From positions 1 through 50,517 of the IMG/VR virus record IMGVR_UViG_3300044737_000122: a stretch of 50,517 nt of DNA; one strand, given 5' to 3'. A program made the position numbers and the translations under genes. Positions 2,155 to 36,716 of the stretch are shown here, one piece after another. Each line of letters starts with the position of its first letter. Position 1 is the first letter of the stretch. This stretch comes from a virus. Lineage: Duplodnaviria; Caudoviricetes. The notes beneath the pieces were generated by a model that did not search any database, was not told the DNA's origin, and saw nothing but the letters and a program-made list of their open reading frames with translations.

Positions 2155-2568
2155 ATGAGTGATGCAGGTTCGGCGGGCTATGTGGGAATCGCCGGTACGC
2201 CACCGCCGCCCTCGGGCACTGCCGCCGGCTCGCAGGCCGGCGCCGGCAAGGTGGAGACCGCCGGTACGCCACCGCCGCCCTCGGGCACTGCCGCCGGCTC
2301 CCATGCCGGCGCGAGCAAGGTGGGAACCGCCGGTACGCCACCGCCGCCCTCGGGCGCCACCGCCGCGGGCTCGCAGGCCGGCGCGGGCTATGTGGGAACC
2401 GCCGGTACGCCACCGCCGCCGTCGGGCGCCACCGCCGCCGGCTCGCGGGCCGGCGCGGGCAAGGTGGGAACCGCCGATACGCCACCGCCGCCCTCGGGCG
2501 CCACCGCCGCCGGCTCGCAGGCCGGCCCGGGCTATGTGGGAACCGCCGGTACGCCACCGCCCAAGTGA
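2155..2568 (+). CDS. Pro/Gly/Ala-rich protein with six 23-24 aa repeats (G[YK]VGTAGTPPPPSG.TAAGSQAG); an in-frame N-terminal extension to 1906/1960 is possible
   Basis: strong AGGAGG SD at 2142-2147 before ATG 2155; six TPPP cores. Confidence 0.7.
   Translation: MSDAGSAGYVGIAGTPPPPSGTAAGSQAGAGKVETAGTPPPPSGTAAGSHAGASKVGTAGTPPPPSGATAAGSQAGAGYVGTAGTPPPPSGATAAGSRAGAGKVGTADTPPPPSGATAAGSQAGPGYVGTAGTPPPK
2174..2562 (+). repeat. six imperfect 69-72 bp coding tandem repeats
   Basis: recurring GTGGGAACCGCCGGTACGCCACCGCCGCCCTCGGGC. Confidence 0.9.
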
Positions 2569-2677
2569 GATCTGTCGAAATAAATGATCGAGCGGCCTGA
2601 TCCCGGGAGCGGGAAGGGGGCCCCTCGAGATGTAGATGGCTCAGCTTTCGCCTGATTGTCAAAAGGAGTAAGACGCG

Positions 2678-4372
2678 ATGCCAGATACGATTGACGCTCC
2701 GAAACGCGGTGCCTTGCCCACCCCGCGGTCCGTATTGGCGGCGGCGAGACCTCATGTCGCCGATGCCCTATTGGGTGCACCGGCCGAATACATCGTCATC
2801 CCACCGCAGCCCTCGATGTGGGGCAACGACGTGCACAGCGACTGCGTGACGGCGGAGGAAGCCTTTGCGAAGGCCTGCTATCAGCCGGAGATTTTCATCA
2901 CCGACGTCGAGGTCATCAACTGGGCGACGCGCCACGGGGTCCTTGAAGGCGCCTATATCAACCAGGTGCTCGACTGGATGGTGCATGACGGCTTTCATCA
3001 GGACGGCCAGACCTACAACGATGGCGGCAAGCTATCGGTCAATTGGACCAATGCCAGCATCCTCAAGGATGCGATTTCGCGAGGGCCAGTGAAGCTCGGC
3101 ATCGCCGCCGATCAGGTTCAGACTGCTTACCGGCGACATAATGGCTGGTTCGGGACGGGATTTCACGCCGACGCCAATGAGGATCACAGCGTCGCGCTCT
3201 GCGGCTACGGCAGCATGTCCTGGCTGGCGCGGCAGCTCGGCGTCTCGGTACCGTCCGGGGTGAATGGCAACGCGCAGGGCTATGCCCTGTTCACCTGGGA
3301 CACGATCGGCATCATCGACGAGCCGTCGATGCGGGCGATCACGCACGAGGCGTGGCTCAGGGTGCCGACAACGGTCATCGTGGCCGCGCAGGGTGTCCGC
3401 ATCCATGTCTGCGCCCGTGGCGGCGACGGTGCCGTGTGGCACAGGTGGCAGACGGCTCCCAACAATGGCTGGAGCAATTGGTATTCGCTGGGCGGCTGGG
3501 TCGACTTGATCAAGGTCGCGACGAACCAGGACGGGCGCCTCGAGATCTTCGCGCGCGGCGGCGACGGCGCCGTCTGGCACAATTGGGAAGTGAGCCCCGG
3601 CGGCGGCTGGAGCGGCTGGTACTCGATGGGCGGCTGGATCGACCGGCTGGACGTGGTCAAGAACGCCGATGGCCGCCTCGAGATCTTCGCGCGCGGCGGT
3701 GATGGCGCCCTCTGGCATATGTGGCAGACCGCTCCCAACAACGGCTGGAGCGGCTGGTACTCGCTCGGCGGCTGGATCGATATGCTTGACGTGGCCCGAA
3801 ACGCCGACGGCCGGCTCGAGATCTTCGCGCGCGGCGGCGACGGCGCTGTCTGGCATATGTGGCAGACGGCTCCGAACAACGGCTGGAGCGGCTGGTACTC
3901 GCTCGGCGGCTGGATCGATATGCTTGACATGGCCCGCAACGCCGATGGCCGTCTCGAGATCTTCGCGCGCGGCGGCGACGGTGCGCTCTGGCACATGTGG
4001 CAGACCGCTCCCAACAATGGCTGGAGCGGCTGGTACTCGATGGGCGGCTGGATCGATATGCTGGACCTCGGCAGAAATGCGGATGGCCGCCTCGAGATCT
4101 TCGCGCGGGGCGGCGATGGTGCCGTCTGGCATATATGGCAGACCGCACCCAGCAACGGCTGGAGCGGCTGGTACTCACTCGGCGGCTGGATCGACCTGCT
4201 CAAGGTCTCTTCGAACGACGATGGCCGCATGGAGATCTTCGCGCGCGGCGGCGACGGCGCCGTCTGGAATATGTGGCAGACGGCTCCCAGCAATGGCTGG
4301 AGCGGGTGGAACTCGCTCGGCGGCTGGATCGATATTCTGGAGGTATGGCCCGAGGCCCCCGGGAATCCGTAA
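2678..4372 (+). CDS. papain-like (C1-type) cysteine peptidase domain fused to a 7-bladed PLL/fucose-lectin-like beta-propeller
   Basis: WGNDVHSDCVTA (Cys) and HSVALCGYG (His) motifs; seven 46-aa repeats RLEIFARGGDGAVWH.WQTAPNNGWSGWYSLGGWID; AAGGAG SD. Confidence 0.8.
   Translation: MPDTIDAPKRGALPTPRSVLAAARPHVADALLGAPAEYIVIPPQPSMWGNDVHSDCVTAEEAFAKACYQPEIFITDVEVINWATRHGVLEGAYINQVLDWMVHDGFHQDGQTYNDGGKLSVNWTNASILKDAISRGPVKLGIAADQVQTAYRRHNGWFGTGFHADANEDHSVALCGYGSMSWLARQLGVSVPSGVNGNAQGYALFTWDTIGIIDEPSMRAITHEAWLRVPTTVIVAAQGVRIHVCARGGDGAVWHRWQTAPNNGWSNWYSLGGWVDLIKVATNQDGRLEIFARGGDGAVWHNWEVSPGGGWSGWYSMGGWIDRLDVVKNADGRLEIFARGGDGALWHMWQTAPNNGWSGWYSLGGWIDMLDVARNADGRLEIFARGGDGAVWHMWQTAPNNGWSGWYSLGGWIDMLDMARNADGRLEIFARGGDGALWHMWQTAPNNGWSGWYSMGGWIDMLDLGRNADGRLEIFARGGDGAVWHIWQTAPSNGWSGWYSLGGWIDLLKVSSNDDGRMEIFARGGDGAVWNMWQTAPSNGWSGWNSLGGWIDILEVWPEAPGNP
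3400..4345 (+). repeat. seven ~138-bp coding repeats (propeller blades)
   Basis: CGAGATCTTCGCGCGCGGCGG recurs at 138-bp spacing (3541, 3679, ...). Confidence 0.9.
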
Positions 4373-4516
4373 GCCGAAGGCGGGCAGAGAACATTGGCCG
4401 CGCGGCTATCAATTACAGGCGCGCTGCACTCACATAGCATCTAATTGCGTTGTTGGCATCGTTTGGTCGCAGGACGACAAGCGCTCGGCTTGAGACGTTA
4501 GCTCCGCATCGCGACA

Positions 4517-4603
4517 CGGATCGACGTGGTCGAACTGATCGAGCTTGGCAAGGCCATCGGATTTGACGCCGCCGACATGGTACGCAAGTTGTCCCGGCGC
4601 TGA
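4517..4603 (+). pseudogene. C-terminal remnant of an XRE-family HTH regulator (RIDVVELIELGKAIGFDAADMVRKL)
   Basis: matches the RRIDVVE...AIGFD C-terminus of XRE proteins; no start or N-terminus. Confidence 0.5.
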
Positions 4604-4619
4604 TTGCGCGGATGATAGC

Positions 4620-4694
4620 TGGTGCCGGTTGAGAGGATTGAACTCCCGACCTTCGGTTTACAAAACCGCTGCTCTACCGCTGAGCTAAACCGGC
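4620..4694 (-). tRNA. trnT: tRNA-Thr(TGT), CCA-encoded; probable att site
   Basis: GCCGGTTTAGCTCAGCGGTAGAGCAGCGGTTTTGTAAACCGAAGGTCGGGAGTTCAATCCTCTCAACCGGCACCA; perfect acceptor stem, anticodon UGU, TTCAA T-loop. Confidence 0.97.
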
Positions 4695-4733
4695 AAACTC
4701 AATGTTTTCAATCGGTTGATTGAGAACAAAAAG

Positions 4734-4755
4734 TTTTTGTCTCTTTTTTGTCTCT
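4734..4755. repeat. tandem 11-bp direct repeat TTTTTGTCTCT x2, candidate integrase arm-type sites
   Basis: 40 bp inside the element from the tRNA; the integrase has an N-terminal arm-binding domain. Confidence 0.55.
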
Positions 4756-19449: not shown

Positions 19450-20916
19450 TTAGACGGTGGCGAGCTTATGCCCGCGGCTCACATCGCGGAGCGCCTCCTC
19501 TATCTGCCGGCGCAGATAGTTGGCGTCCTCGCGGTTGCGTACGGTCGGGTTATTGATGACGACGGAGTAGGTGGTCTGGCCGCCCGCGCTCCGGCCCGCC
19601 GGCACGATGCGCTCCCCGCCGTGCGCCAGTATGGGCACCGCGGTTCCTATGGCGCCCGGCACGATGCCCCCATGCTCGAAGCGCGGGAGCTTGACCTCGG
19701 CGGCCAGCGGGATGTTGATGCCGAAGCTCTTGCCGCCTACGCCGGGTGCCCAGTCGGGTATCGAGAAATGTATCTTGTTAAGGGCGCCCAAAATGACGTT
19801 GACCGCCTTTACCCAGCTGTTCGCCCATGCCTCCGCGATCCCGATGAGGAAGTTCACCCCGGCTGCGAAGACGCCCTTGATGCCCTCCCAGATGGCCCCG
19901 AGCTTTTCCTTTACGAGCGCCCAGTTGTTCACCACCCACAGGATGCCGGCCACCATGCCGCCGATGATCGCGCCGCCTATGATGTAGGGCGCCAGCGCCA
20001 CGGCGAGGGCAAAGAAGGCCGGAATCACGGTAGTGAAGATCGTGACGGCCAACCCGATGAGCGCCGGCGTGAGCGCGCCCGCTATCGCCCCCGCGACTAT
20101 GTAAAGGACGGCCTGGTGCTGCTGTAGCCATCCCACAAGGTTGGCGGTGTTTTCCGACCACTCGATCACCTTCTCGATTACCGGGAGCATGGCCGCGATA
20201 AACTGGGTCAGGAGCGGCAAGAGCTTGGTGCCCACCGTTTCCAGCAGGTTCTGGAACGTGACGTGGAAGGCCGCCATCTGCCCTTGGAACGTCTGCGAGA
20301 AGCCTTGCGCCTGGCCGGCCACCTTCGTTTGCAGCTCGTCGAGCGCCTGCATGGGCGTCAGGGTGTCGCTGATCTCGATGCCGTAAAGCTTCAGGGCGCG
20401 CTGGTTGCCGGACATCACGAGGCTGATGAGCTTCTGCGACTCCGAGAGCTGTATGCCCTTTGCGCGCGCGAGGTCCATCGCAAGCGTGTTGAGCTTGATG
20501 GCCTGGCTGAGGTCGCCGGTGCGCTGGAAGAGGGACGCGATCGAGTTCGCTGCCTCCTCGTCGTCAAAGCCGAGTTTCACCGCGGCTGCCGCGGCGGCAA
20601 GTATGCCAGCGCGCGCGTCCGTTCCCTTCTTTCCCATCGTGGCGAGCGTCGCACCAAAGCGCGCCATCTCGACCTCGGCACTGGAGGCGGCCTTGACCGC
20701 CATCACCCCGAACGCGCCGATAGCCGTGGCGGCCCCGGCGATACCCACGGCGATCGCGGTGGAGGCGGTCTTGGCATTGTCGAAGTTCGTCGCCATCTTG
20801 CCGACCGACGTTCCGACGTTCTTAAAAACGGCCGTAGCCTCGTCGCGGGCCTTGATGACTATCGAGAGCTCCTGGTTGTCGCCGCCGAATGAGGTCATGC
20901 CCCCATTATCACCCAT
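19450..20916 (-). CDS. tape measure protein (short; alternative start at 20898)
   Basis: LSIVIKARDEAT N-terminus, Ala-rich amphipathic body, W-spaced repeats, LPRFEHGGIV...AHGGERIVP C-terminus. Confidence 0.88.
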   Translation of the reverse strand: MGDNGGMTSFGGDNQELSIVIKARDEATAVFKNVGTSVGKMATNFDNAKTASTAIAVGIAGAATAIGAFGVMAVKAASSAEVEMARFGATLATMGKKGTDARAGILAAAAAAVKLGFDDEEAANSIASLFQRTGDLSQAIKLNTLAMDLARAKGIQLSESQKLISLVMSGNQRALKLYGIEISDTLTPMQALDELQTKVAGQAQGFSQTFQGQMAAFHVTFQNLLETVGTKLLPLLTQFIAAMLPVIEKVIEWSENTANLVGWLQQHQAVLYIVAGAIAGALTPALIGLAVTIFTTVIPAFFALAVALAPYIIGGAIIGGMVAGILWVVNNWALVKEKLGAIWEGIKGVFAAGVNFLIGIAEAWANSWVKAVNVILGALNKIHFSIPDWAPGVGGKSFGINIPLAAEVKLPRFEHGGIVPGAIGTAVPILAHGGERIVPAGRSAGGQTTYSVVINNPTVRNREDANYLRRQIEEALRDVSRGHKLATV

Positions 20917-21114
20917 GTTTCGGCTGCCTGCCCGCCCGCTCCTCGTTGCGGTGGTCTATCTCCCACTTGCGCAGAAGCGCCTCGATCACCCAGGTGGGCT
21001 GCGCCAGGTAGGTGTCGTAATCCCAATGCATCCGCTCGCACACGGCGACAATGACCATCTCGTCGCGCACTTGACCGGATGCGTAGGCGGCTACCGCGCC
21101 CGCTATTTTTTTTT
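20909..21114 (-). CDS. tail assembly chaperone gpT part, reached by -1 frameshift
   Basis: A9 slippery run 21106-21114; the -1 frame reads IAGAVAAYASG...ERMHWDYDTYLAQPTWVIEALL...KHG* and ends at the TMP start. Confidence 0.75.
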
Positions 21115-21399
21115 AGGGTCGATGAGCCCGGTAACGAGCGCGCTCAGCTCGGTAAACTCCACGATGGGCAGGTTGAGTACGGCCTCGAGGATCTTGTCGG
21201 GGTCTTCGATGTCGTCAAACTTGGTGATGACGATCTTGAACGCGGAGTTGTTCGCAGTGATCTGCTGATCAAGATCGCTCTTGCCGTCTTCCTTGCGGCC
21301 TGCAATGGCCGCTATCTGCTGCGCCTCGCGGCCTGTAATGTAGTCGTACATCACGATGGCATGGGAGCCGACGGTTACGTTCTTGGTGGGACGTTCCAT
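21103..21399 (-). CDS. tail assembly chaperone gpG
   Basis: between the tube and TMP genes; ends DPKKK*. Confidence 0.8.
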   Translation of the reverse strand: MERPTKNVTVGSHAIVMYDYITGREAQQIAAIAGRKEDGKSDLDQQITANNSAFKIVITKFDDIEDPDKILEAVLNLPIVEFTELSALVTGLIDPKKK

Positions 21400-21401
21400 A
21401 C

Positions 21402-22406
21402 TTAGGCTTTGTCGTACACGTGGGTAGAGGCGTTGTTGACGTTGTTGATGACGACCGCGGTAAGCTCCACATCGGTCGCGTCGTATTCCACGGTAAATTC
21501 CTGATTAAGCACTAGGAGGCCGTCGAGATTGTGTTCGATGGGAGGGGCGGTGAGGACCAGGCGGCCCAGCTTGAAGGTGATCGTCTCCAGCGAAGACGCG
21601 CCGATGAGGGAGCCGGTAAAGCTCACGATGAGCGCGTTCTTGGTGTTGGCGCGGTACTTGGCGAGCTCGGTCGTGTCGGAGAAGTGCAGCGAGTAGCTCC
21701 CGGTGATCTCTAAGCGTCCGTTTACGAGATTGCCCGCGGTTATCGTGTTGGCGCCCGAGAGGAATGCCTCGTCGAGCAGCACGTTGTTCTTGAGGTTGAG
21801 CTTGAACGACTTGAGCGGCGTAGCGCTGGCGCTGGCTGCGTTGGACACCGAGGTCCCGAACTTCGCCTTGTACTGGTGGTAGGCGAACTGGGTCTCCTGC
21901 GTGTAGCTCTCCGAGAGGGTATCGGTGCCCGGGAACTGGCCGATGAGGTCGAGCGTGCATTTTGCATAATCATCGCTCACCTCGAAGTTAAGCGCGTTGC
22001 ATACCGTGTTGAGGTAGGTCGCCGTCTCGATCGCGCCGGCCTTCGTGGTCAGCGTCGCGGTGCGCGGCGTCGAGTTGGTGTTATTGATGGTGAAGGTGTG
22101 GGTGTAGGCGCTGTCCGATATCGTCGAGGACGACACGCTGCCCATGGCGAGCGCGAGCGCGTACGGCATCGTCTTTACGTCGGGTACGAAGCCGATCGAC
22201 CCCTGCGCGTACTTGCGCTTTATCATCGAGTTGGAGGAAATGTTGCGGATGCCGCGCGCCGCATTGAACATCGACTTTTCCGCGATGCCCTGCATCGAGT
22301 AGTCAGTCCAGGGGAAGTAGACCGTCTCCGCGACGGACACGCCGGGCGCCGCGGCGCTCTCGATGCCCAGCCCGACCGCAACCTGCGTACCTGAAGTTTT
22401 CGCCAT
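21402..22406 (-). CDS. major tail (tube) protein
   Basis: VGLGIES..PG, AYTHTFT, LEITGSYSL motifs; Ser/Thr-rich; position. Confidence 0.8.
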   Translation of the reverse strand: MAKTSGTQVAVGLGIESAAAPGVSVAETVYFPWTDYSMQGIAEKSMFNAARGIRNISSNSMIKRKYAQGSIGFVPDVKTMPYALALAMGSVSSSTISDSAYTHTFTINNTNSTPRTATLTTKAGAIETATYLNTVCNALNFEVSDDYAKCTLDLIGQFPGTDTLSESYTQETQFAYHQYKAKFGTSVSNAASASATPLKSFKLNLKNNVLLDEAFLSGANTITAGNLVNGRLEITGSYSLHFSDTTELAKYRANTKNALIVSFTGSLIGASSLETITFKLGRLVLTAPPIEHNLDGLLVLNQEFTVEYDATDVELTAVVINNVNNASTHVYDKA

Positions 22407-29220: not shown

Positions 29221-30153
29221 TTAGGCGACTGCGTTCTTGATGAGGTATCCGGCGGCGGCGGAGACGAGCTGGAGATCGTAATAGTTATCGCCCACGCGAA
29301 CGTAGGTGCCCTTGCGATCCTCCTCATCAGAGCCGCGCAGGCGCTCTACCTTGCGGGTCTTCCACTGGTAGTTAAGGCCGAGCGTGATCATCTTTTGGCC
29401 GACGCGCGGGTTGATGTAGGCGAGGACGATGTCCTTGCCCCAGATGTAGCCCATGGCGTCGGTCTGACCCTCCTTGGCGGTGTTCTTGCCGGCGGCACCG
29501 ATGAGGACGCGGTCAACGCCTATGAGAGACGCGAGCAGGTCCTCGGTGATGACGCCCTTCTGCGAGTACTTGACGCGCTCGAGGAAGTCAGGATGGTTCT
29601 TAATCTTGTCCCACACCTGCTTGCCTATGATGGCAGTGTTCGGGCGCTGGAAGATGGAAGCGTGCACGGTCTGCATGCCGGTCTCGATAACGCCGAACGG
29701 GTCGGAGTTATCGTAGTCGCTGAACTGCGCGCTGCCCGACAGCGTGATGTTCTGGGTCATGACGCTGGTCGAGGTGAGCATCGTTGCGAGCTCCACCTCC
29801 TTGTTGATCATGTGCATCTCGGTGACGTTCTCGGTCGCATCGACGTACGGGTCGAGCGGCGGGACTGCATTGTCCGCATCCTCGTCCGTTACGAACTGCT
29901 TGAGCGAGTGGTCTTCCGCGAAGTACGGAAGGCCGGTCGTCAGCGAGAGCGTTACCTCGTTGGAAGGTGCACCCGAGGCGCGCTTGTTCTCCGGATTGCG
30001 GAAGCGGCCCTTGTCATAGATGAAGTGCTTGCCAGACTGCTTAGAGACGGGCATCGCGGGAAAGATCGAATCCGCGATGTACGTGTCGTTGCTGTAACCG
30101 ATAGAGATGTTGCTCAGTACCGGGTCGACGCCTTGATAACGATTGGTAGACAT
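29221..30153 (-). CDS. major capsid protein (HK97 fold, lambda-E-like)
   Basis: VDPVLSNISIGY, FSDYDNSDPFGVIE, RPNTAIIG, AAAGYLIKNAVA. Confidence 0.88.
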   Translation of the reverse strand: MSTNRYQGVDPVLSNISIGYSNDTYIADSIFPAMPVSKQSGKHFIYDKGRFRNPENKRASGAPSNEVTLSLTTGLPYFAEDHSLKQFVTDEDADNAVPPLDPYVDATENVTEMHMINKEVELATMLTSTSVMTQNITLSGSAQFSDYDNSDPFGVIETGMQTVHASIFQRPNTAIIGKQVWDKIKNHPDFLERVKYSQKGVITEDLLASLIGVDRVLIGAAGKNTAKEGQTDAMGYIWGKDIVLAYINPRVGQKMITLGLNYQWKTRKVERLRGSDEEDRKGTYVRVGDNYYDLQLVSAAAGYLIKNAVA

Positions 30154-30178: not shown

Positions 30179-30544
30179 CTAAGCAGAGAGCGTGTAGATG
30201 CCGAGCTGCACCTCGATAATGTCGCCGTCGGCCGATGCGGCCTCAAGAGCGACGCCCAGGACCGTGTGATGGTCGGTGGTGGTGGTAACAACCTTGCCGG
30301 CGGTCGTGGCGGTGACCTTCGCGCCTGCGCTGATAGCGGCCGATGCGATGGCCTTCGTGGTGCCGATAAAGCGGTAGGTGCACTGCTCGGTGGCTGCGGC
30401 AGCCATTTGAGCGACGCCCACAATGGCGTCAGAGTTGCTGGTGGCTACGTCGATGCCGGTCGACGTGATTTTGACGACCTGGTAGGCCGTGATGGCGTTG
30501 TCTGCGGTCTTCGACCTCTCGAAGTCGCGTACTGATTGAGACAT
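30179..30544 (-). CDS. capsid cement protein (DUF2190-like)
   Basis: AAISAGAKVT...GVALEAASADGDIIEV. Confidence 0.78.
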   Translation of the reverse strand: MSQSVRDFERSKTADNAITAYQVVKITSTGIDVATSNSDAIVGVAQMAAAATEQCTYRFIGTTKAIASAAISAGAKVTATTAGKVVTTTTDHHTVLGVALEAASADGDIIEVQLGIYTLSA

Positions 30545-30563: not shown

Positions 30564-31775
30564 TTAGTTAGATGCTGCGAGCTCTGCGTCGTACTTGGCC
30601 TTGAGTTCGGGCTTCTCGGAGAAGAGCTTCCGGACTGCGTCTGAGTACCCAAGTTTGCCATCCGAGGCGGCGATCATCGCCTTAACCGCGGTGTCAACTT
30701 CCTTCGCGACAGCATCGACGCCGGCACCCTCACTACCGCCGTCGCCGACCTCGCTAAAGATCGATGCGTCGCGCTTGGGCAGGTTGCTCATGAGGTTGAT
30801 GAACTGGTCGCGCTGCTTCTCCGAGAGCGTCTTTACGAAGCTCTCAACTGCGCCCTTCTGCTTGACGCCGAAGTGGCCGTTCTTGTTGGTATCGGAGAAG
30901 ATCATCTTGGTCACAAGCGCGTCGCGCTCGCTGGCCTCGATCTTCTGAAGTGCCTTGGCGCCGTCGTCCGCTGCCTTGCGGAGCGCGTTCACCTCGGCCT
31001 CGGACATGGTAATTACCTTGCCCTTCGGCTCGGCTGCTGCCACAGGCGCCGGGTCGGCCGCGGGTGCCGGATCGGCCGGGACCGGGTCTGCTGCGGGCGC
31101 AGGGTCTGCTGCGGGCTCCTCTATCACGCTTGCGAAAGCCGATTTTTGATCAGCATCCAATTCGTCCTTGTGCTCGCGCACAAAGCTCTTCTCGTCTGCC
31201 GTCAGGTCCTCCGCTTTCTTCGCGAGTATTTCTTTCAAATCCATAGATTGACTAAATTGATTCATAATGCCCGGCTCGCTGAACGCCAGCACGGGTGCCT
31301 CGAGCTCCTTGAAGTACGGCTTGTTGGTGAGCGCGCCGCCCACGAGGACGTTGTGGAACACCTTCCGCGTCTCCGGGTCCTCATACTCCTCGTAGAACTC
31401 GGGCGAGAAGTACTTGAAGGCGTTCTCCTGGAGGAGGCGCGCGCCTTCCTCGGTCCACTCGACGTACGCCCAGAGGCCGTTTACTCCCCGGTCGTACACC
31501 TCCCTGAACCAGCCGATGGCCGGCAGCTCCCCGCCGCTCATGCCGTTGTCGTGACCCGCGGTGATGGGGATGCTGCGGCGGACCTTGTCTTTGAAGTTTT
31601 GTACGAACTCCTTGATGTCGGCCGGCGTAATCTCCATCTCGCCGTACACCGGATGCTGCCACTTGCCCGTCGGGACAACGTGTAGATCACCCGCTTTTTC
31701 AGCAAAGGCCCGGCCCTCGGGGAGGAGGATCGGAAACGCGATTCGCTTTTTGCTATCGTGTCCCTCTTGCTTCAT
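30564..31775 (-). CDS. Mu gpI-like prohead protease/scaffold
   Basis: AIGWF, VEWTEEG, FKYFSPEF, GGALTNKPYFKEL; acidic scaffold C-terminus. Confidence 0.88.
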   Translation of the reverse strand: MKQEGHDSKKRIAFPILLPEGRAFAEKAGDLHVVPTGKWQHPVYGEMEITPADIKEFVQNFKDKVRRSIPITAGHDNGMSGGELPAIGWFREVYDRGVNGLWAYVEWTEEGARLLQENAFKYFSPEFYEEYEDPETRKVFHNVLVGGALTNKPYFKELEAPVLAFSEPGIMNQFSQSMDLKEILAKKAEDLTADEKSFVREHKDELDADQKSAFASVIEEPAADPAPAADPVPADPAPAADPAPVAAAEPKGKVITMSEAEVNALRKAADDGAKALQKIEASERDALVTKMIFSDTNKNGHFGVKQKGAVESFVKTLSEKQRDQFINLMSNLPKRDASIFSEVGDGGSEGAGVDAVAKEVDTAVKAMIAASDGKLGYSDAVRKLFSEKPELKAKYDAELAASN

Positions 31776-31861
31776 GCCTCCATCATACAGCATGTTCACC
31801 GCCGTATTGTCCGAGACCACAAACGGCAATATGGGGATAACAACGTTCGAGGGCTATTGGG

Positions 31862-32841: not shown

Positions 32842-35067
32842 TCATTGGCTTCTGCGCTCTTCCCGCTTGTCAGCCTCCTCGCGGGCCGGCGTGCCCTTCT
32901 TGGTTATAGGCGTCTTGGGCTGCATCAAGGCATTGACAACGTCGCCGAAGCGGTCTCGCAGCGATTTTGGAATGCCGCCGATCTTAGGCAGTTCGTCCTC
33001 GTCCTTCTTGATCGCCACCCATATGCCGCGGCAGTTGGAATGGAAGATGGTGTTTTGAGCAAACGGGTCGCTCGTCTCGACGATGCGTCCGTCGATCGAC
33101 AGGCAGTAGTTGCAGGTAGTCAGGTCCAGGAGCTCCGATCGCTGGAGCGCGTGCAGGTCGTCGCCGTTGATGTCAAACACGACGTTGCGGCCATAGTTTA
33201 TGTAGCCGGCCATGAGGATGCTGGAAGCGTCGGAGGTGAGGGCCTCGATGGCTGCGGCAGCCGCGGCGTCCGCCGCTGCAAGCGCCTGAGTGGTTGACGC
33301 GCCCTTGCTCAGCGCCTCGATGTAGGCGTTCTTGCTCTCGCTCGTTATTTGCGTGATCTGCTGGTCGGCTATCGCGGCGGCCCGTATGTCGATCTGCCGG
33401 AGCACGTCCTGCGGGTTTGCAGGCGCGTTGAGCCCGAGCTCCTTGGCGGCGTTGTTCTTGCCGTATAGGAACGCGCTCTGGGCGGCGTTCTTGATGATCC
33501 TCGCCAAGTCGTTCTGCACCTTCAGTGTCGCGTCCTTTATGCCCTCGGTGTCGCCCGCATGCGCGGCCCGGGTGAACGCGGCCATGTACTTGTCGCGGGC
33601 CTCGTGCAGGAGCGCGGCCGTCTCCTTGTCAAACTGGGCCTCCAGCTCGTCGAGCTTGTCCTGGAGGCTCTGGAAGTTGACCTTCTCCTCAGCAAACGTC
33701 AGCGACCGCGATGGCTTAAATTCGGCGAACGCGAGGTACTTTTTTTTTAGGTTACCCTCGCTCATCTCGATGTCATCGGGAGCCTTGGGGTCTTGAGGAG
33801 CAAACGGCGCGATCTTGGGAGCTGGTTTCTCGCGCTTGCCGGTCTCGTCGAACTCAGGGAGATTGAGCGCCTCGCGGAAGTAATCCTCGTCGGCTTCCTG
33901 CGGAGTGACCGCACCCGTGTCCACAAGAGTTTTGTAGGCGTCGGACAGGCCAGCCACGTCCGTACTGGTGATGCCCTCGAAATCCAGGGTCGGATATTCC
34001 TTAACGTTATCGAAGTTGAGGTCTACGAGCTCCTTGATGGCCTGCTTGTTAAAGGTGCTGGCGAAATTACGGGCCACGGCCTCAAGCGACTGCAAGAACA
34101 GGTCTGAGTGGTCCTCGGAGAGGGCGCGGCTACCCGAGGTGCCGGCGGTCGATGCGGCGCCGAGCTCAAGAAAGGCCGCGAGTACCGACTTCATAATCTC
34201 GCGGTTGTGGTGTGCGAGAGAGTTCTGCGGATCGCGCGTCTTGTCAGACTGCATGTCCTTAAAGCCGATCTCATAGTCGTTAGGCTCAACGATGTAGGCA
34301 TGCGAGTTGGCGCGCATGTTCTTGAGGATCGTCTCGGCCTTCGCGACATCGGACGCAGTCGCTTCGCTGGGCAACTTCACATACGGGACGCCCAAGCCCT
34401 GCCGCTCAAAGGCGATGGCGTCGATCTTGTAGATCGTGTTCTTGATAAACCAGTGCTTGTAGGCTGGGCGCAGTATCGACGTGCCCCACCAATTGTCGCC
34501 TTCCATCTCGTTGACGAACACGATGAGCTTGTCGCCCGGTATCTCAACCACCTTACCGGTTGAGGTGTTCTGCGTGATGCCGAACTCGCCTCCCGCAATG
34601 GCCCACTTCTGGATTGAACGCGGCATGCGCGGGGCAAGCTTGTCCCATACGATGCGCGGCGTGCCATCAACGTCGCGTACGGCGAATACCTTCTCGAAGG
34701 GCATCACGCCGAATGGAAGCGACAAGAGCGCTTGGCGCAGGAAGTCGTCGAAAGAAAAATTAGGTGCTTCAAAAAGCGCCTTCGTCACAAAATCCTTTCT
34801 CTCCTGATCGACGGCCTCTTCGCTGGCCGCTTTGACAAACCAGTTCGCCGCTCGCACGGGGAGGGTGACCGCGAGGTATGCGGCGCGCACGGTGCCATCG
34901 GACTTGCGCATCTCGTCGTAGATCGCGATGCCGCGAACGTCCTGAAGTTTGGAGTTGTACTCCTCGCTGATGACTCCATCGAGAATGCGGGTGCCGGTGT
35001 CGCCAAGCTCTACAAGCCCGTCAATTTTTTTAGCGGCTGTGGGTTTCTTGGGCTTGGCGGGTGCCAT
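32842..35067 (-). CDS. portal protein (DUF935/Mu gp29-like) fused to MuF-like minor head protein
   Basis: GTSILRPAYKHW, ERQGLGVP, GSRALSEDH; C-terminal TCNYCLSIDG...HSNCRG. Confidence 0.88.
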   Translation of the reverse strand: MAPAKPKKPTAAKKIDGLVELGDTGTRILDGVISEEYNSKLQDVRGIAIYDEMRKSDGTVRAAYLAVTLPVRAANWFVKAASEEAVDQERKDFVTKALFEAPNFSFDDFLRQALLSLPFGVMPFEKVFAVRDVDGTPRIVWDKLAPRMPRSIQKWAIAGGEFGITQNTSTGKVVEIPGDKLIVFVNEMEGDNWWGTSILRPAYKHWFIKNTIYKIDAIAFERQGLGVPYVKLPSEATASDVAKAETILKNMRANSHAYIVEPNDYEIGFKDMQSDKTRDPQNSLAHHNREIMKSVLAAFLELGAASTAGTSGSRALSEDHSDLFLQSLEAVARNFASTFNKQAIKELVDLNFDNVKEYPTLDFEGITSTDVAGLSDAYKTLVDTGAVTPQEADEDYFREALNLPEFDETGKREKPAPKIAPFAPQDPKAPDDIEMSEGNLKKKYLAFAEFKPSRSLTFAEEKVNFQSLQDKLDELEAQFDKETAALLHEARDKYMAAFTRAAHAGDTEGIKDATLKVQNDLARIIKNAAQSAFLYGKNNAAKELGLNAPANPQDVLRQIDIRAAAIADQQITQITSESKNAYIEALSKGASTTQALAAADAAAAAAIEALTSDASSILMAGYINYGRNVVFDINGDDLHALQRSELLDLTTCNYCLSIDGRIVETSDPFAQNTIFHSNCRGIWVAIKKDEDELPKIGGIPKSLRDRFGDVVNALMQPKTPITKKGTPAREEADKREERRSQ

Positions 35068-35090
35068 ATGCCGATATGATAGCACCCACT

Positions 35091-36716
35091 TTAAAACTGC
35101 TCGTCGAGCAATCCCCCGGTGAGCGTGCTCGAGCGGCGCGCGGGCGGTGGCTCAGGTGGCAGGGCGCTCGTCGATTTGCCAAGCATCCATCGGCGTTGCG
35201 CGAGCATCTTGGCGTCCGGGCAGTGGTCGTCTTCCTTGAGCGGCTTGTCGCTGCCCTTCTGGTAGCGATAGCGCTTGTGCTGCCAGATGGCCTCCTTGAA
35301 CTCCGCGGGGATGCGGTTGAGGCGCCGCGAGAAGTACGCGCGGTAGTTACCGAGCATCTCCTCCTTCTCTGTGCCGAGCCGTTTGCTCTTGTCTTTCTTT
35401 CCGTCCGTGGTGGTGTGCTGGACCGGGCGGCCGAAGGGCACCTCCACGACCGTGCAGCGGAATTGCTCCTTCTCCGGGAGCTCGCGAATGGCCTTGGCGA
35501 TCTCGGCGCGCAGGTCGGCGTTCTCGAAGGGGTGGGAGCCGTCGGCGTACAGCGTCCGCATTTTGTATTTGAGCACGTCGGCCACGATGTCCCGGATAAT
35601 GACGGCGGAGCGCACCTGCGTGTAGATGCCCATTTCGAGCTGGACCAGCACGCCGTCCTTGTGCGCCATCTCAACGTCCCAGGCCGTCATGCCCTGGAAG
35701 CCCCAGTCCAAGCCTCCCGCCACTTCAGCGCCCGGCCGATACTCGTAGCCGGTCAGGTCGGGGATGACGCAGGCATCCACGTCCTCGGGGTCGTTGACCA
35801 TACCCTCTGCCGACGGCCGCAGGCCCATGTACTCCACGTCAAACCAGTCAATCGACGACTTCTCGCGCCAAGCCTGAATGATGTTGTCGACCGGCACCCA
35901 GCCTTCGGGGTCGCCGGTGCGGCCGGTGGCGCGCTTCTTGAGGCCCGCGAGGTCCGGTATCTCGCGGTTGAGCCTCTCGTCGTCCCATATCGCCGGGTCA
36001 AACTCCTTCGTTACGTCGAAGATGTCCCAGGAGAGACGGGTGTAGCCGAGCTCGTCCGCGCGGTCCCACGTCTCCTGGAAGAAGCCGAATATCTTATGAA
36101 AGGTCGAGGTCAGCACCACGAGCGGGTTGTCTGCCGTGTCGACCATCGGGAGCGCGGAGAGGATGATCTCATCTTTGGCCTCGCACGCCTCGTCGATACA
36201 AAGGTCATCGGGGTGAGGGCCGCGTACCTGCTTCTGCGATGCCGCCACGGCGCGGAAGTAATTGCCCTGGTCCGTGCGCGTACGCAGCATGGTGGGCTCC
36301 TTGGGCAGCGCCTCCAGGATCGCGTCGCTGACGAAGATGAACTCGGTAAAGTAGCGGTACACCCCGGTGGCCTGCTCGAGCGAGCCGCCCAGGTTGACGA
36401 TGTTGCGCAGCTTGAGGAACCATCGGACGAAGCCCAATGCGCCGAGCATCTTGCTTTTGCCGCCGCCGCGGGGGCCCTTGATGATGAAGCGGTTGGCGGG
36501 CCGGCCCTGAAGATCCTGCTGGAGCCACAGGCACGCGAATATCAGCCGCAGCTTGCGCGGAAAGAGCATCGACGGGTCGATGAATTTAAGCAGCGATATG
36601 GGCTTCGTGCCGTACCGACGCCGGATGTCCTCGGGACTACTGAGGACTACCTTCTTGAATTTTCGCTGCGCCTCGGAGAGCCTCTGCCTCTGCGATAGCG
36701 GCGGTGAGGATTGCAT
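35091..36716 (-). CDS. terL: terminase large subunit
   Basis: GPRGGGKS Walker A, LCIDEA Walker B, GGLDWG and DDHCPDA RNase-H motifs. Confidence 0.9.
   Translation of the reverse strand: MQSSPPLSQRQRLSEAQRKFKKVVLSSPEDIRRRYGTKPISLLKFIDPSMLFPRKLRLIFACLWLQQDLQGRPANRFIIKGPRGGGKSKMLGALGFVRWFLKLRNIVNLGGSLEQATGVYRYFTEFIFVSDAILEALPKEPTMLRTRTDQGNYFRAVAASQKQVRGPHPDDLCIDEACEAKDEIILSALPMVDTADNPLVVLTSTFHKIFGFFQETWDRADELGYTRLSWDIFDVTKEFDPAIWDDERLNREIPDLAGLKKRATGRTGDPEGWVPVDNIIQAWREKSSIDWFDVEYMGLRPSAEGMVNDPEDVDACVIPDLTGYEYRPGAEVAGGLDWGFQGMTAWDVEMAHKDGVLVQLEMGIYTQVRSAVIIRDIVADVLKYKMRTLYADGSHPFENADLRAEIAKAIRELPEKEQFRCTVVEVPFGRPVQHTTTDGKKDKSKRLGTEKEEMLGNYRAYFSRRLNRIPAEFKEAIWQHKRYRYQKGSDKPLKEDDHCPDAKMLAQRRWMLGKSTSALPPEPPPARRSSTLTGGLLDEQF

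Follow-up and report, generated by a model that had tools for sequence, protein, structure and literature searches.

The window analysed here is the whole 50,517-nt stretch of the provirus record IMGVR_UViG_3300044737_000122 (rated complete, about 59% GC), whose minus strand carries a gene joining a Mu-type phage portal domain to a MuF-like domain in one reading frame. The linker between the two domains contains a run of nine adenines (A9), and comparison with homologous loci points to this run as a conserved programmed slippage site, most likely transcriptional, which would yield both a free portal and a portal-MuF fusion; a probability of roughly 55% is given to this reading. The features concerned are the following.

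32842..35085, minus strand: portal-MuF fusion gene, 747 aa from a GTG start (open reading frame (ORF) list, translation)
33859..34926, minus strand: Mu-type portal domain, residues 54-409 (PF06074, PF21919, PHROG 113)
33706..33858, minus strand: interdomain linker rich in proline and acidic residues, about residues 410-460, which holds the A-run (alignment)
33740..33748, minus strand: A9 homopolymer with T before and G after, the proposed slippage site (sequence)
33739..33745, minus strand: in-phase A_AAA_AAG heptamer, the 3' part of the A9 run (sequence)
33716..33718, minus strand: TAA stop of the -1 frame, after 7 codons (sequence)
33699..33701, minus strand: TGA stop of the +1 frame, after about 13 codons (sequence)
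32845..33738, minus strand: MuF-like ("head morphogenesis"/minor capsid) C-terminal domain, residues 450-747 (PHROG 241; AlphaFold2 (AF2) model and BFVD)

The portal domain matches PF06074 (Portal_Mu) at E=1.2e-56, with 193 bits against a Pfam cutoff of 23.9, as well as PF21919 (E=7.8e-22) and the portal protein family PHROG 113 (E=5e-81), and PF06074 is also matched in all 35 of the 35 aligned homologues. Homologues share an invariant Met at residue 7 of the window protein, which may be its true start. The C-terminal half is assigned to the MuF family by its fold and, weakly, by curated profiles: PHROG 241 (head morphogenesis) matches it at E=1.3e-5, and PF04233 (Phage_Mu_F) stays below its cutoff of 29.6 in the window protein (12.6 bits, E=0.23), reaching E<=0.01 in 8 of the 35 homologues. 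The AF2 model of the C-terminal 298 aa has a predicted local distance difference test score (pLDDT) of 89.1 and gives 98 BFVD matches at E<=0.001, to minor capsid or head morphogenesis proteins or to portal fusions, the top TM-scores being 0.65-0.72 when normalised to the query, that is, the C-terminal domain model. A search of solved structures with the same domain returned nothing convincing (best profile E=0.059, best Foldseek match to the PDB E=0.049). The homologue alignment contains an invariant C-x2-C ... H-x2-C-R-G motif in the MuF-like domain. "Portal-MuF fusion" appears to be a fair description of the predicted protein.

The linker is hypervariable in the alignment, K448 and K449 being its only positions conserved in at least 90% of sequences. 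The A9 run is placed between the Portal_Mu domain and the structured C-terminal domain: the AF2 model begins at residue 450, its pLDDT is below 50 for the first 6 residues past the run, and the predicted structured part starts at about residue 464 (helices from model residue 15). The minus strand here reads ...GGT AAC CTA AAA AAA AAG TAC CTC... and encodes ...EGNLKKKYLAF... within the 747-aa ORF. The -1 frame would be entered through a -1 shift of the ribosome or from an mRNA with one additional A, and the predicted product of about 455 aa ends in ...NLKKK-VPRVRRI. The +1 frame would be entered from an mRNA that lacks one A or has two additional ones, and the C-terminal peptide predicted for it is ...KK-STSRSPNLSHRGR. 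The original prediction, made from these letters, had named the junction CTA AAA AAA AAG TAC with its heptamer in phase, the -1 reading VPRVRRI up to TAA (33718-33716), and the position of the slippery run at the portal-MuF domain junction; the first two are borne out by the minus-strand sequence and the third by the Pfam boundaries and the AF2 model, while the +1 stop (TGA, 33701-33699) is an addition of the present analysis. Tracts of at least eight A occur at only two places in the window (4 overlapping matches against 0.78 expected; 4 of 100 shuffles reach 4), and the counts from homologous loci given below speak much more strongly against chance.

Homologous sequence was collected from 92 loci, 12 from genomes and 80 from viral contigs; removal of one incomplete and 13 duplicate linkers left 79 distinct ones, that of the window counted in. 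Each of the 79 is free of stops and keeps the portal and MuF halves in one frame, and the best 120 of 420 protein matches are all fused forms (717-923 aa, 45-81% identity). The A9 run also appears without insertion or deletion in two Logan assemblies of soil-metagenome DNA runs, possibly the source of the record; both are contigs assembled from DNA, in which rare variants do not show. Since every linker is in frame and both assemblies agree on A9, the fusion, as judged from sequence comparison, is genuine and not an assembly artefact; the possibility raised beforehand, that a homopolymer error joins two separate genes, is very improbable.

The run itself is widely kept throughout a large uncultured phage family. 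The longest A-run of the linker is 9 in 34 cases, 10 in 18 and 11 in 2, so that 54 of 79 linkers have at least 9; in the remainder it is 8 in 3, 7 in 7, 6 in 4 and below 6 in 11. A run of at least 9 is found in 24/24 linkers from proteins at least 50% identical to the window protein, in 14/16 at 44-50% and in 15/38 below 44%. Over 553,740 nt of homologous loci the coding strand carries 62 runs of A9 or longer and not a single T9 or longer, and 55 of the 62 fall inside the portal-MuF linker, which makes up 17,499 nt of that total. Unfused distant portals have no run of A>=8 at the 3' end of the portal gene, which agrees with the tract being tied to the fusion.

What surrounds the run, by comparison, is variable. 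Among the 54 run-bearing linkers, it starts at codon position 3 (phase 2) in 27, at position 1 (phase 0) in 21 and at position 2 (phase 1) in 6, and the following base is G in 27, C in 20 and T in 7. The encoded peptides differ accordingly in the linkers concerned (LKKKY, LKKN, SKKKE, VKKKP, PKKKA, IKKK and others). Outside the run, 17 GC-rich genes use AAA for lysine 150 times against 690 for AAG, and CTA accounts for 54 of their 910 leucine codons; GC-rich relatives nonetheless build the run from such rare codons, as CTA, GTA or TCA followed by AAA AAA and AAC or AAG. The changes of phase and of flanking codons show that the linker was rearranged repeatedly while the run stayed in place. Because peptide, phase and 3' base vary and rare codons are chosen, the conserved object, on the comparative evidence, is a string of at least nine A's in DNA or RNA, and neither a lysine motif nor a particular heptamer. 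A T stands immediately 5' of the run in 43 of the 54 linkers (position 33749 in the window); its relation to the reading frame varies, so it is not a stop-codon effect. A T before the A-run is seen also at the tail-chaperone site, described below, of the window and most relatives.

Stops come early in both shifted frames. In the 54 linkers a median of 5 codons precedes the stop of the -1 frame and a median of 9 that of the +1 frame. In GC-rich members the later of the two stops comes at 10-26 codons, compared with medians of 29-115 at control positions of the same genes, and in most of these members only 4-13% of control positions close equally early.

A second line of evidence is provided by the only other A9 run of the window, which lies in the tail region.

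21402-22406, minus strand: tail protein (PHROG 290, E=3.7e-22)
21103..21399, minus strand: tail assembly chaperone "G" ORF, 98 aa (...DPKKK-TAG), between the tail protein and tape measure genes
21106..21114, minus strand: second A9 run, at the 3' end of the chaperone gene (sequence)
20909..21108, minus strand: "T" extension, 66 codons, in the -1 frame from the second A9 (sequence comparison)
19450-20916, minus strand: tape measure protein (PHROG 28, E=2.3e-20)

The T extension (52-67 aa) is conserved in sequence in the -1 frame in the window and 9 relatives, and the 0 and +1 frames are not; it measures 62-67 aa in the window and five of these relatives. By its sequence pattern the site has the classical tail-chaperone G/GT form, and the recoded gene has probably gone unannotated. 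Seven relatives (G001-G007) are rated 100% complete and span 41-51 kb. Five of them (G001-G005) have exactly two A9 runs each, located in the portal linker and at the chaperone end and in both cases on the coding strand, and the other two, G006 and G007, complete with terminal repeats, likewise have two runs in the same two places. A relative whose linker lacks the run (G008) has no A9 anywhere, and another (G012) has the portal run only. That the same tract occurs where recoding is the accepted function makes the best indirect case for recoding at the portal tract as well.

Taken together, the comparative evidence strongly favours a functional recoding site at the linker. In the proposed scheme, unslipped expression would give the 747-aa portal-MuF fusion, while a slip into either shifted frame would lead to closure within 7-13 codons and to a free portal of about 455-461 aa in which the conserved portal core is complete. 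Most likely the slip takes place in transcription: copying of the T9 template would be repetitive, giving transcripts whose run is lengthened to 10, 11 or more A's or shortened to 8, and the same device would operate at the tail-chaperone G/GT site. Both forms could then enter one portal ring by way of the domain they have in common, leaving MuF inside the head on only a part of the 12 subunits. The occurrence of slippage, its step and rate, and the assembly rationale are what we infer from these comparisons.

The preference for a transcriptional step is based on published slippage rules. Slippage occurs at runs of 9 A or T, and the polymerase of Thermus thermophilus slips on the A9 of dnaX, where nearby stops in both non-zero frames yield about 50% truncated product (PMC5009743, PMC1088944). 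A threshold of nine, met here in any phase and with any 3' base, fits the length rule of the polymerase hybrid and not a heptamer rule; the length threshold, the independence of phase and 3' base and the closure of both frames all match Thermus dnaX, and transcriptional slippage is favoured on these grounds.

The main competitor, which we regard as a minority possibility though one to be taken seriously, is that ribosomes shift by -1 on A_AAA_AAG (A_AAA_AAA/C in relatives) or slide on the poly(A), so that the same truncated portal would arise from homogeneous mRNA. The window does combine the in-phase A_AAA_AAG with an upstream Shine-Dalgarno (SD)-like GAGGG at a dnaX-like distance, and the chaperone site, with the same tract, needs exactly the -1 frame, tail-chaperone G/GT being reportedly, since Xu et al. 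2004, the classical case of ribosomal -1 frameshifting. In E. coli systems, sliding of ribosomes on A-runs grows with run length and truncates proteins through out-of-frame stops (PMC4363877). It is robust at A11, however, whereas most runs here are A9-A10. A heptamer, moreover, needs 6-7 A's in one phase, while the 54 linkers have at least nine in three phases and before any 3' base, and the run is never replaced by another type of slippery heptamer across hosts of 29-65% GC. Nor are the usual stimulators conserved: the 60 nt past the run in the window fold with z=+1.66 (matched by 196 of 200 shuffles), z ranges from -2.19 to +1.29 in 16 relatives whose folds share no helix, the 50 nt before the run show nothing consistent among the relatives folded, and an upstream SD-like 4-mer is present in 10/54 linkers compared with 11% of control windows. 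The use of polymerase slippage in Thermus instead of frameshifting on A_AAA_AAG has been linked to a separate tRNA-Lys for AAG (PMC5009743). Nitrobacter vulgaris, in which the closest named prophage resides (L001, 77% identity, A10), has tRNA-Lys(CUU) besides tRNA-Lys(UUU), and by the same account the former should make AAG less shift-prone there. The original prediction had proposed a dnaX-type site: its heptamer is in phase in the window, yet neither stem-loop nor SD element is conserved in homologues, and A_AAA_AAG is not the conserved element, since 3' base and phase vary and the length is always at least 9 where 7 would suffice. The run, by contrast, is conserved as that proposal would expect, and its side remark that A9 also permits transcriptional slippage would, on the present reading, name the better-fitting mechanism by length, phase and 3'-base pattern.

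An improbable alternative is that the A-run is kept for another reason, such as a pause for folding or oligomerisation, a Lys-Lys protease or recognition site, or a DNA-level signal. The conservation of K448 and K449 and the adjoining head maturation protease gene (30564-31829) would suit it, as would the pausing of ribosomes at consecutive AAA codons (PMC4363877). By codon usage, however, selection acts on A's and not on Lys, AAG being the usual codon (690 vs 150) and flanking non-Lys codons being recruited to reach nine; the early closure of both shifted frames in GC-rich members also argues against it, as does the fact that in 8 complete genomes, the window among them, the one further A9 run lies at an established frameshift site. 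Finally, chance, or a homopolymer sequencing error falsely joining two genes, is effectively refuted: although homopolymers are error-prone and, among short portal proteins, a few (P0125, P0130) terminate at the KK motif itself, the uniformly in-frame linkers, the fused state of the best 120 protein matches, the A9 in both assemblies and the concentration of 55 of 62 A9+ runs in 3% of the sequence all speak against it.

These short proteins deserve a separate remark. P0125, P0126 and P0130 are portal-only proteins about 63% identical to the portal half of the window protein, with lengths of 447-451 aa except for one of 401 aa without the N-terminal part. P0125 ends ...GGQKKR and P0130 ...GTIKKT, at the KK motif, and P0126 ends a few residues earlier (...ERIL). 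Their run length could put MuF out of frame, in which case a slip would create the fusion, or they could reflect homopolymer errors; searches for the contigs encoding them gave best matches only 63% (metagenome contigs) and 64% (viral contigs) identical.

Several points weigh against programmed, mainly transcriptional slippage as the function of the portal-MuF run. Ribosomal -1 frameshifting is possible throughout, as every A9, whatever its phase, includes an in-phase A_AAA_AAA/N heptamer, and sliding on poly(A) is length dependent as well (PMC4363877). The early stops of AT-rich members are expected by chance (control fraction up to 0.3-0.8). The 25 of 79 distinct linkers without a run of A>=9 imply that the slip device is not obligatory for the fusion. 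Many linkers come from close relatives, so the counts, given without phylogenetic correction, do not represent independent events. Public sequencing runs containing this sequence comprise two DNA metagenome runs and no RNA run, and a tblastn search of 50,697 phage records returned 853 portal-only matches, none of them covering at least 80% of the query, so that no cultured phage in that collection carries this fused family. If slippage were about 50% or less, most subunits would still be fusions, unlike the 1-2 gp7 copies in SPP1. Of the earlier claim that one gene supplies a free portal and a fusion by truncation, then, the early closure of shifted frames and the conservation of the run stand in favour, the two products themselves being putative.

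Slippage on A9 and frameshifting at G/GT are textbook recoding, and the portal-MuF site can be compared with several such systems. Its closest known match appears to be dnaX of T. thermophilus and not that of E. coli. Like the portal-MuF gene, Thermus dnaX has A9 in the sense strand of one long ORF, with a stop close to the run in each non-zero frame; its slipped product lacks the C-terminal part but keeps the N-terminal domains, and it requires neither a heptamer phase nor an RNA stimulator (PMC5009743, PMC1088944). The product there is a clamp-loader subunit and here a phage virion portal fused to MuF; slippage was measured there and is deduced here, and here a T precedes the run in 43/54 linkers. 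With E. coli dnaX the window shares the identical in-phase heptamer and a -1 shift that soon truncates, but the 3' stem-loop is absent, the SD element is not conserved, and the last base and phase of the heptamer vary. The lambda gpG/gpGT type resembles the portal site as a conserved recoding site of the structural operon that sets the ratio of two proteins with a common N-terminus, and G/GT of this phage clade even has the same T-A9/A10 tract; there, however, the shift extends the protein into the T domain and only -1 will do, whereas at portal-MuF it would truncate and either frame would work.

In phage Mu, portal and MuF are a separate gene pair, gp29/gp30, in that order. SPP1 gp6/gp7 likewise has the order portal then MuF in separate genes, the ratio being set by expression and binding and not by recoding; gp7, of the MuF family, attaches to the portal in sub-stoichiometric amounts, with 1-2 copies per capsid (PMC5576092). 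Microbacterium phages of subclusters EA3, EA5 and EA8 and cluster EB resemble the window in combining portal and MuF-like functions in a single gene, although theirs are actinobacteriophage portals, and the excerpted text describes no recoding at the junction (PMC7302621).

Programmed slippage that gives a truncated isoform is thus of a known kind, and no earlier description was found of it at a portal-MuF junction: the literature search, which included the excerpted recoding texts PMC5009743, PMC3711429 and PMC10274946 and left outside the supplementary gene lists (9A/9T runs of PMC1088944, frameshift clusters of PMC3711429), gave no recoding site at this junction or in a portal gene. Portal-MuF fusions are annotated as single proteins, and a pure fusion forces a 12:12 ratio on a partner found at 1-2 copies per capsid in one well-studied phage. 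A mixture of free portal and fusion would put fewer than 12 MuF domains under the portal, and a truncating slip at the junction would, if real, explain how the 12:12 fusion is tolerated. The site would then be a second conserved recoding site in the structural operons of tailed phages, beside G/GT, and the free portal an unannotated product. Sites of this kind escape frameshift finders, since nothing interrupts the long ORF, and annotators should not "correct" as errors the poly-A tracts that lie where domains meet in phage structural genes. The linkers also form a natural, phylogenetically broad set of A9-A11 tracts for comparing transcriptional with translational slippage.

A broader and more doubtful proposition, which is put forward only tentatively, is that polymerase slippage on T-A9-11 is a general means of setting stoichiometry where domains of virion proteins meet, in a widespread uncultured clade of Mu-portal phages, with hosts ranging from Alphaproteobacteria to candidate-phyla bacteria. 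The junctions in question would be portal-MuF, G-T and, in some members (A11 in L062 and L066), MuF and a C-terminal effector-like domain. Were this true, one "polyprotein" gene would give nested portal, portal-MuF and portal-MuF-effector products, co-assembling in one dodecamer and loading defined numbers of internal or ejected proteins.

Other long tracts were encountered among the relatives. In L062 and L066 the ORF continues for about 200 aa past the MuF domain (931-aa ORF in L062), and an A11 lies exactly at this second junction (L062:5133-5143, L066:5127-5137), with a further tract at L066:5245-5253; both shifted frames there close within 0-8 codons. The extra domain of L066 matches RelA_SpoT weakly (E=3.5e-5; 24.5 bits, where the cutoff is 27), and the portal-MuF linker of L062 has no A-run. 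Three AT-rich relatives (G011, G013 and G014, behind L037, L043 and L049) have 3-6 A9+ tracts each, on the coding strand only. One tract among the AT-rich relatives (L149) is found 50 codons from the start of an ORF of 525 codons that lies upstream of the portal, and at two others (L148, L146) another frame is open for 159-253 codons.

The portal-MuF gene of the window belongs to a head-tail operon whose neighbouring genes are as follows.

35091-36716, minus strand: large terminase
30564-31829, minus strand: head maturation protease
30179-30544, minus strand: scaffold/decoration protein
29221-30153, minus strand: major head protein

Near one end of the window lies a tRNA-Thr(UGU) gene (4620-4694, minus strand), and the contig of a related Nitrobacter vulgaris prophage likewise ends at tRNA-Thr(UGU) (G016, contig C34:36041-36113); this shared position suggests that the phage integrates at this gene. 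Some loci depart from the common organisation of the fusion. In L008 (4092-4149), from an alphaproteobacterial metagenome-assembled genome, the portal match shifts frame at query residues 362-380, inside the portal domain and at a distance from the A-run; the linker keeps its A9, and the frame change could be an assembly error or mark a broken copy. In L007 (~3949-4750) and L071 (~2343-3234) about 0.8-0.9 kb separates two parts of the MuF match that lie in different frames, a pattern suggestive of an element inserted into the MuF coding sequence. For one portal homologue, P0157, the precomputed annotation lists the Hint-domain families PF07591 and PF13403.

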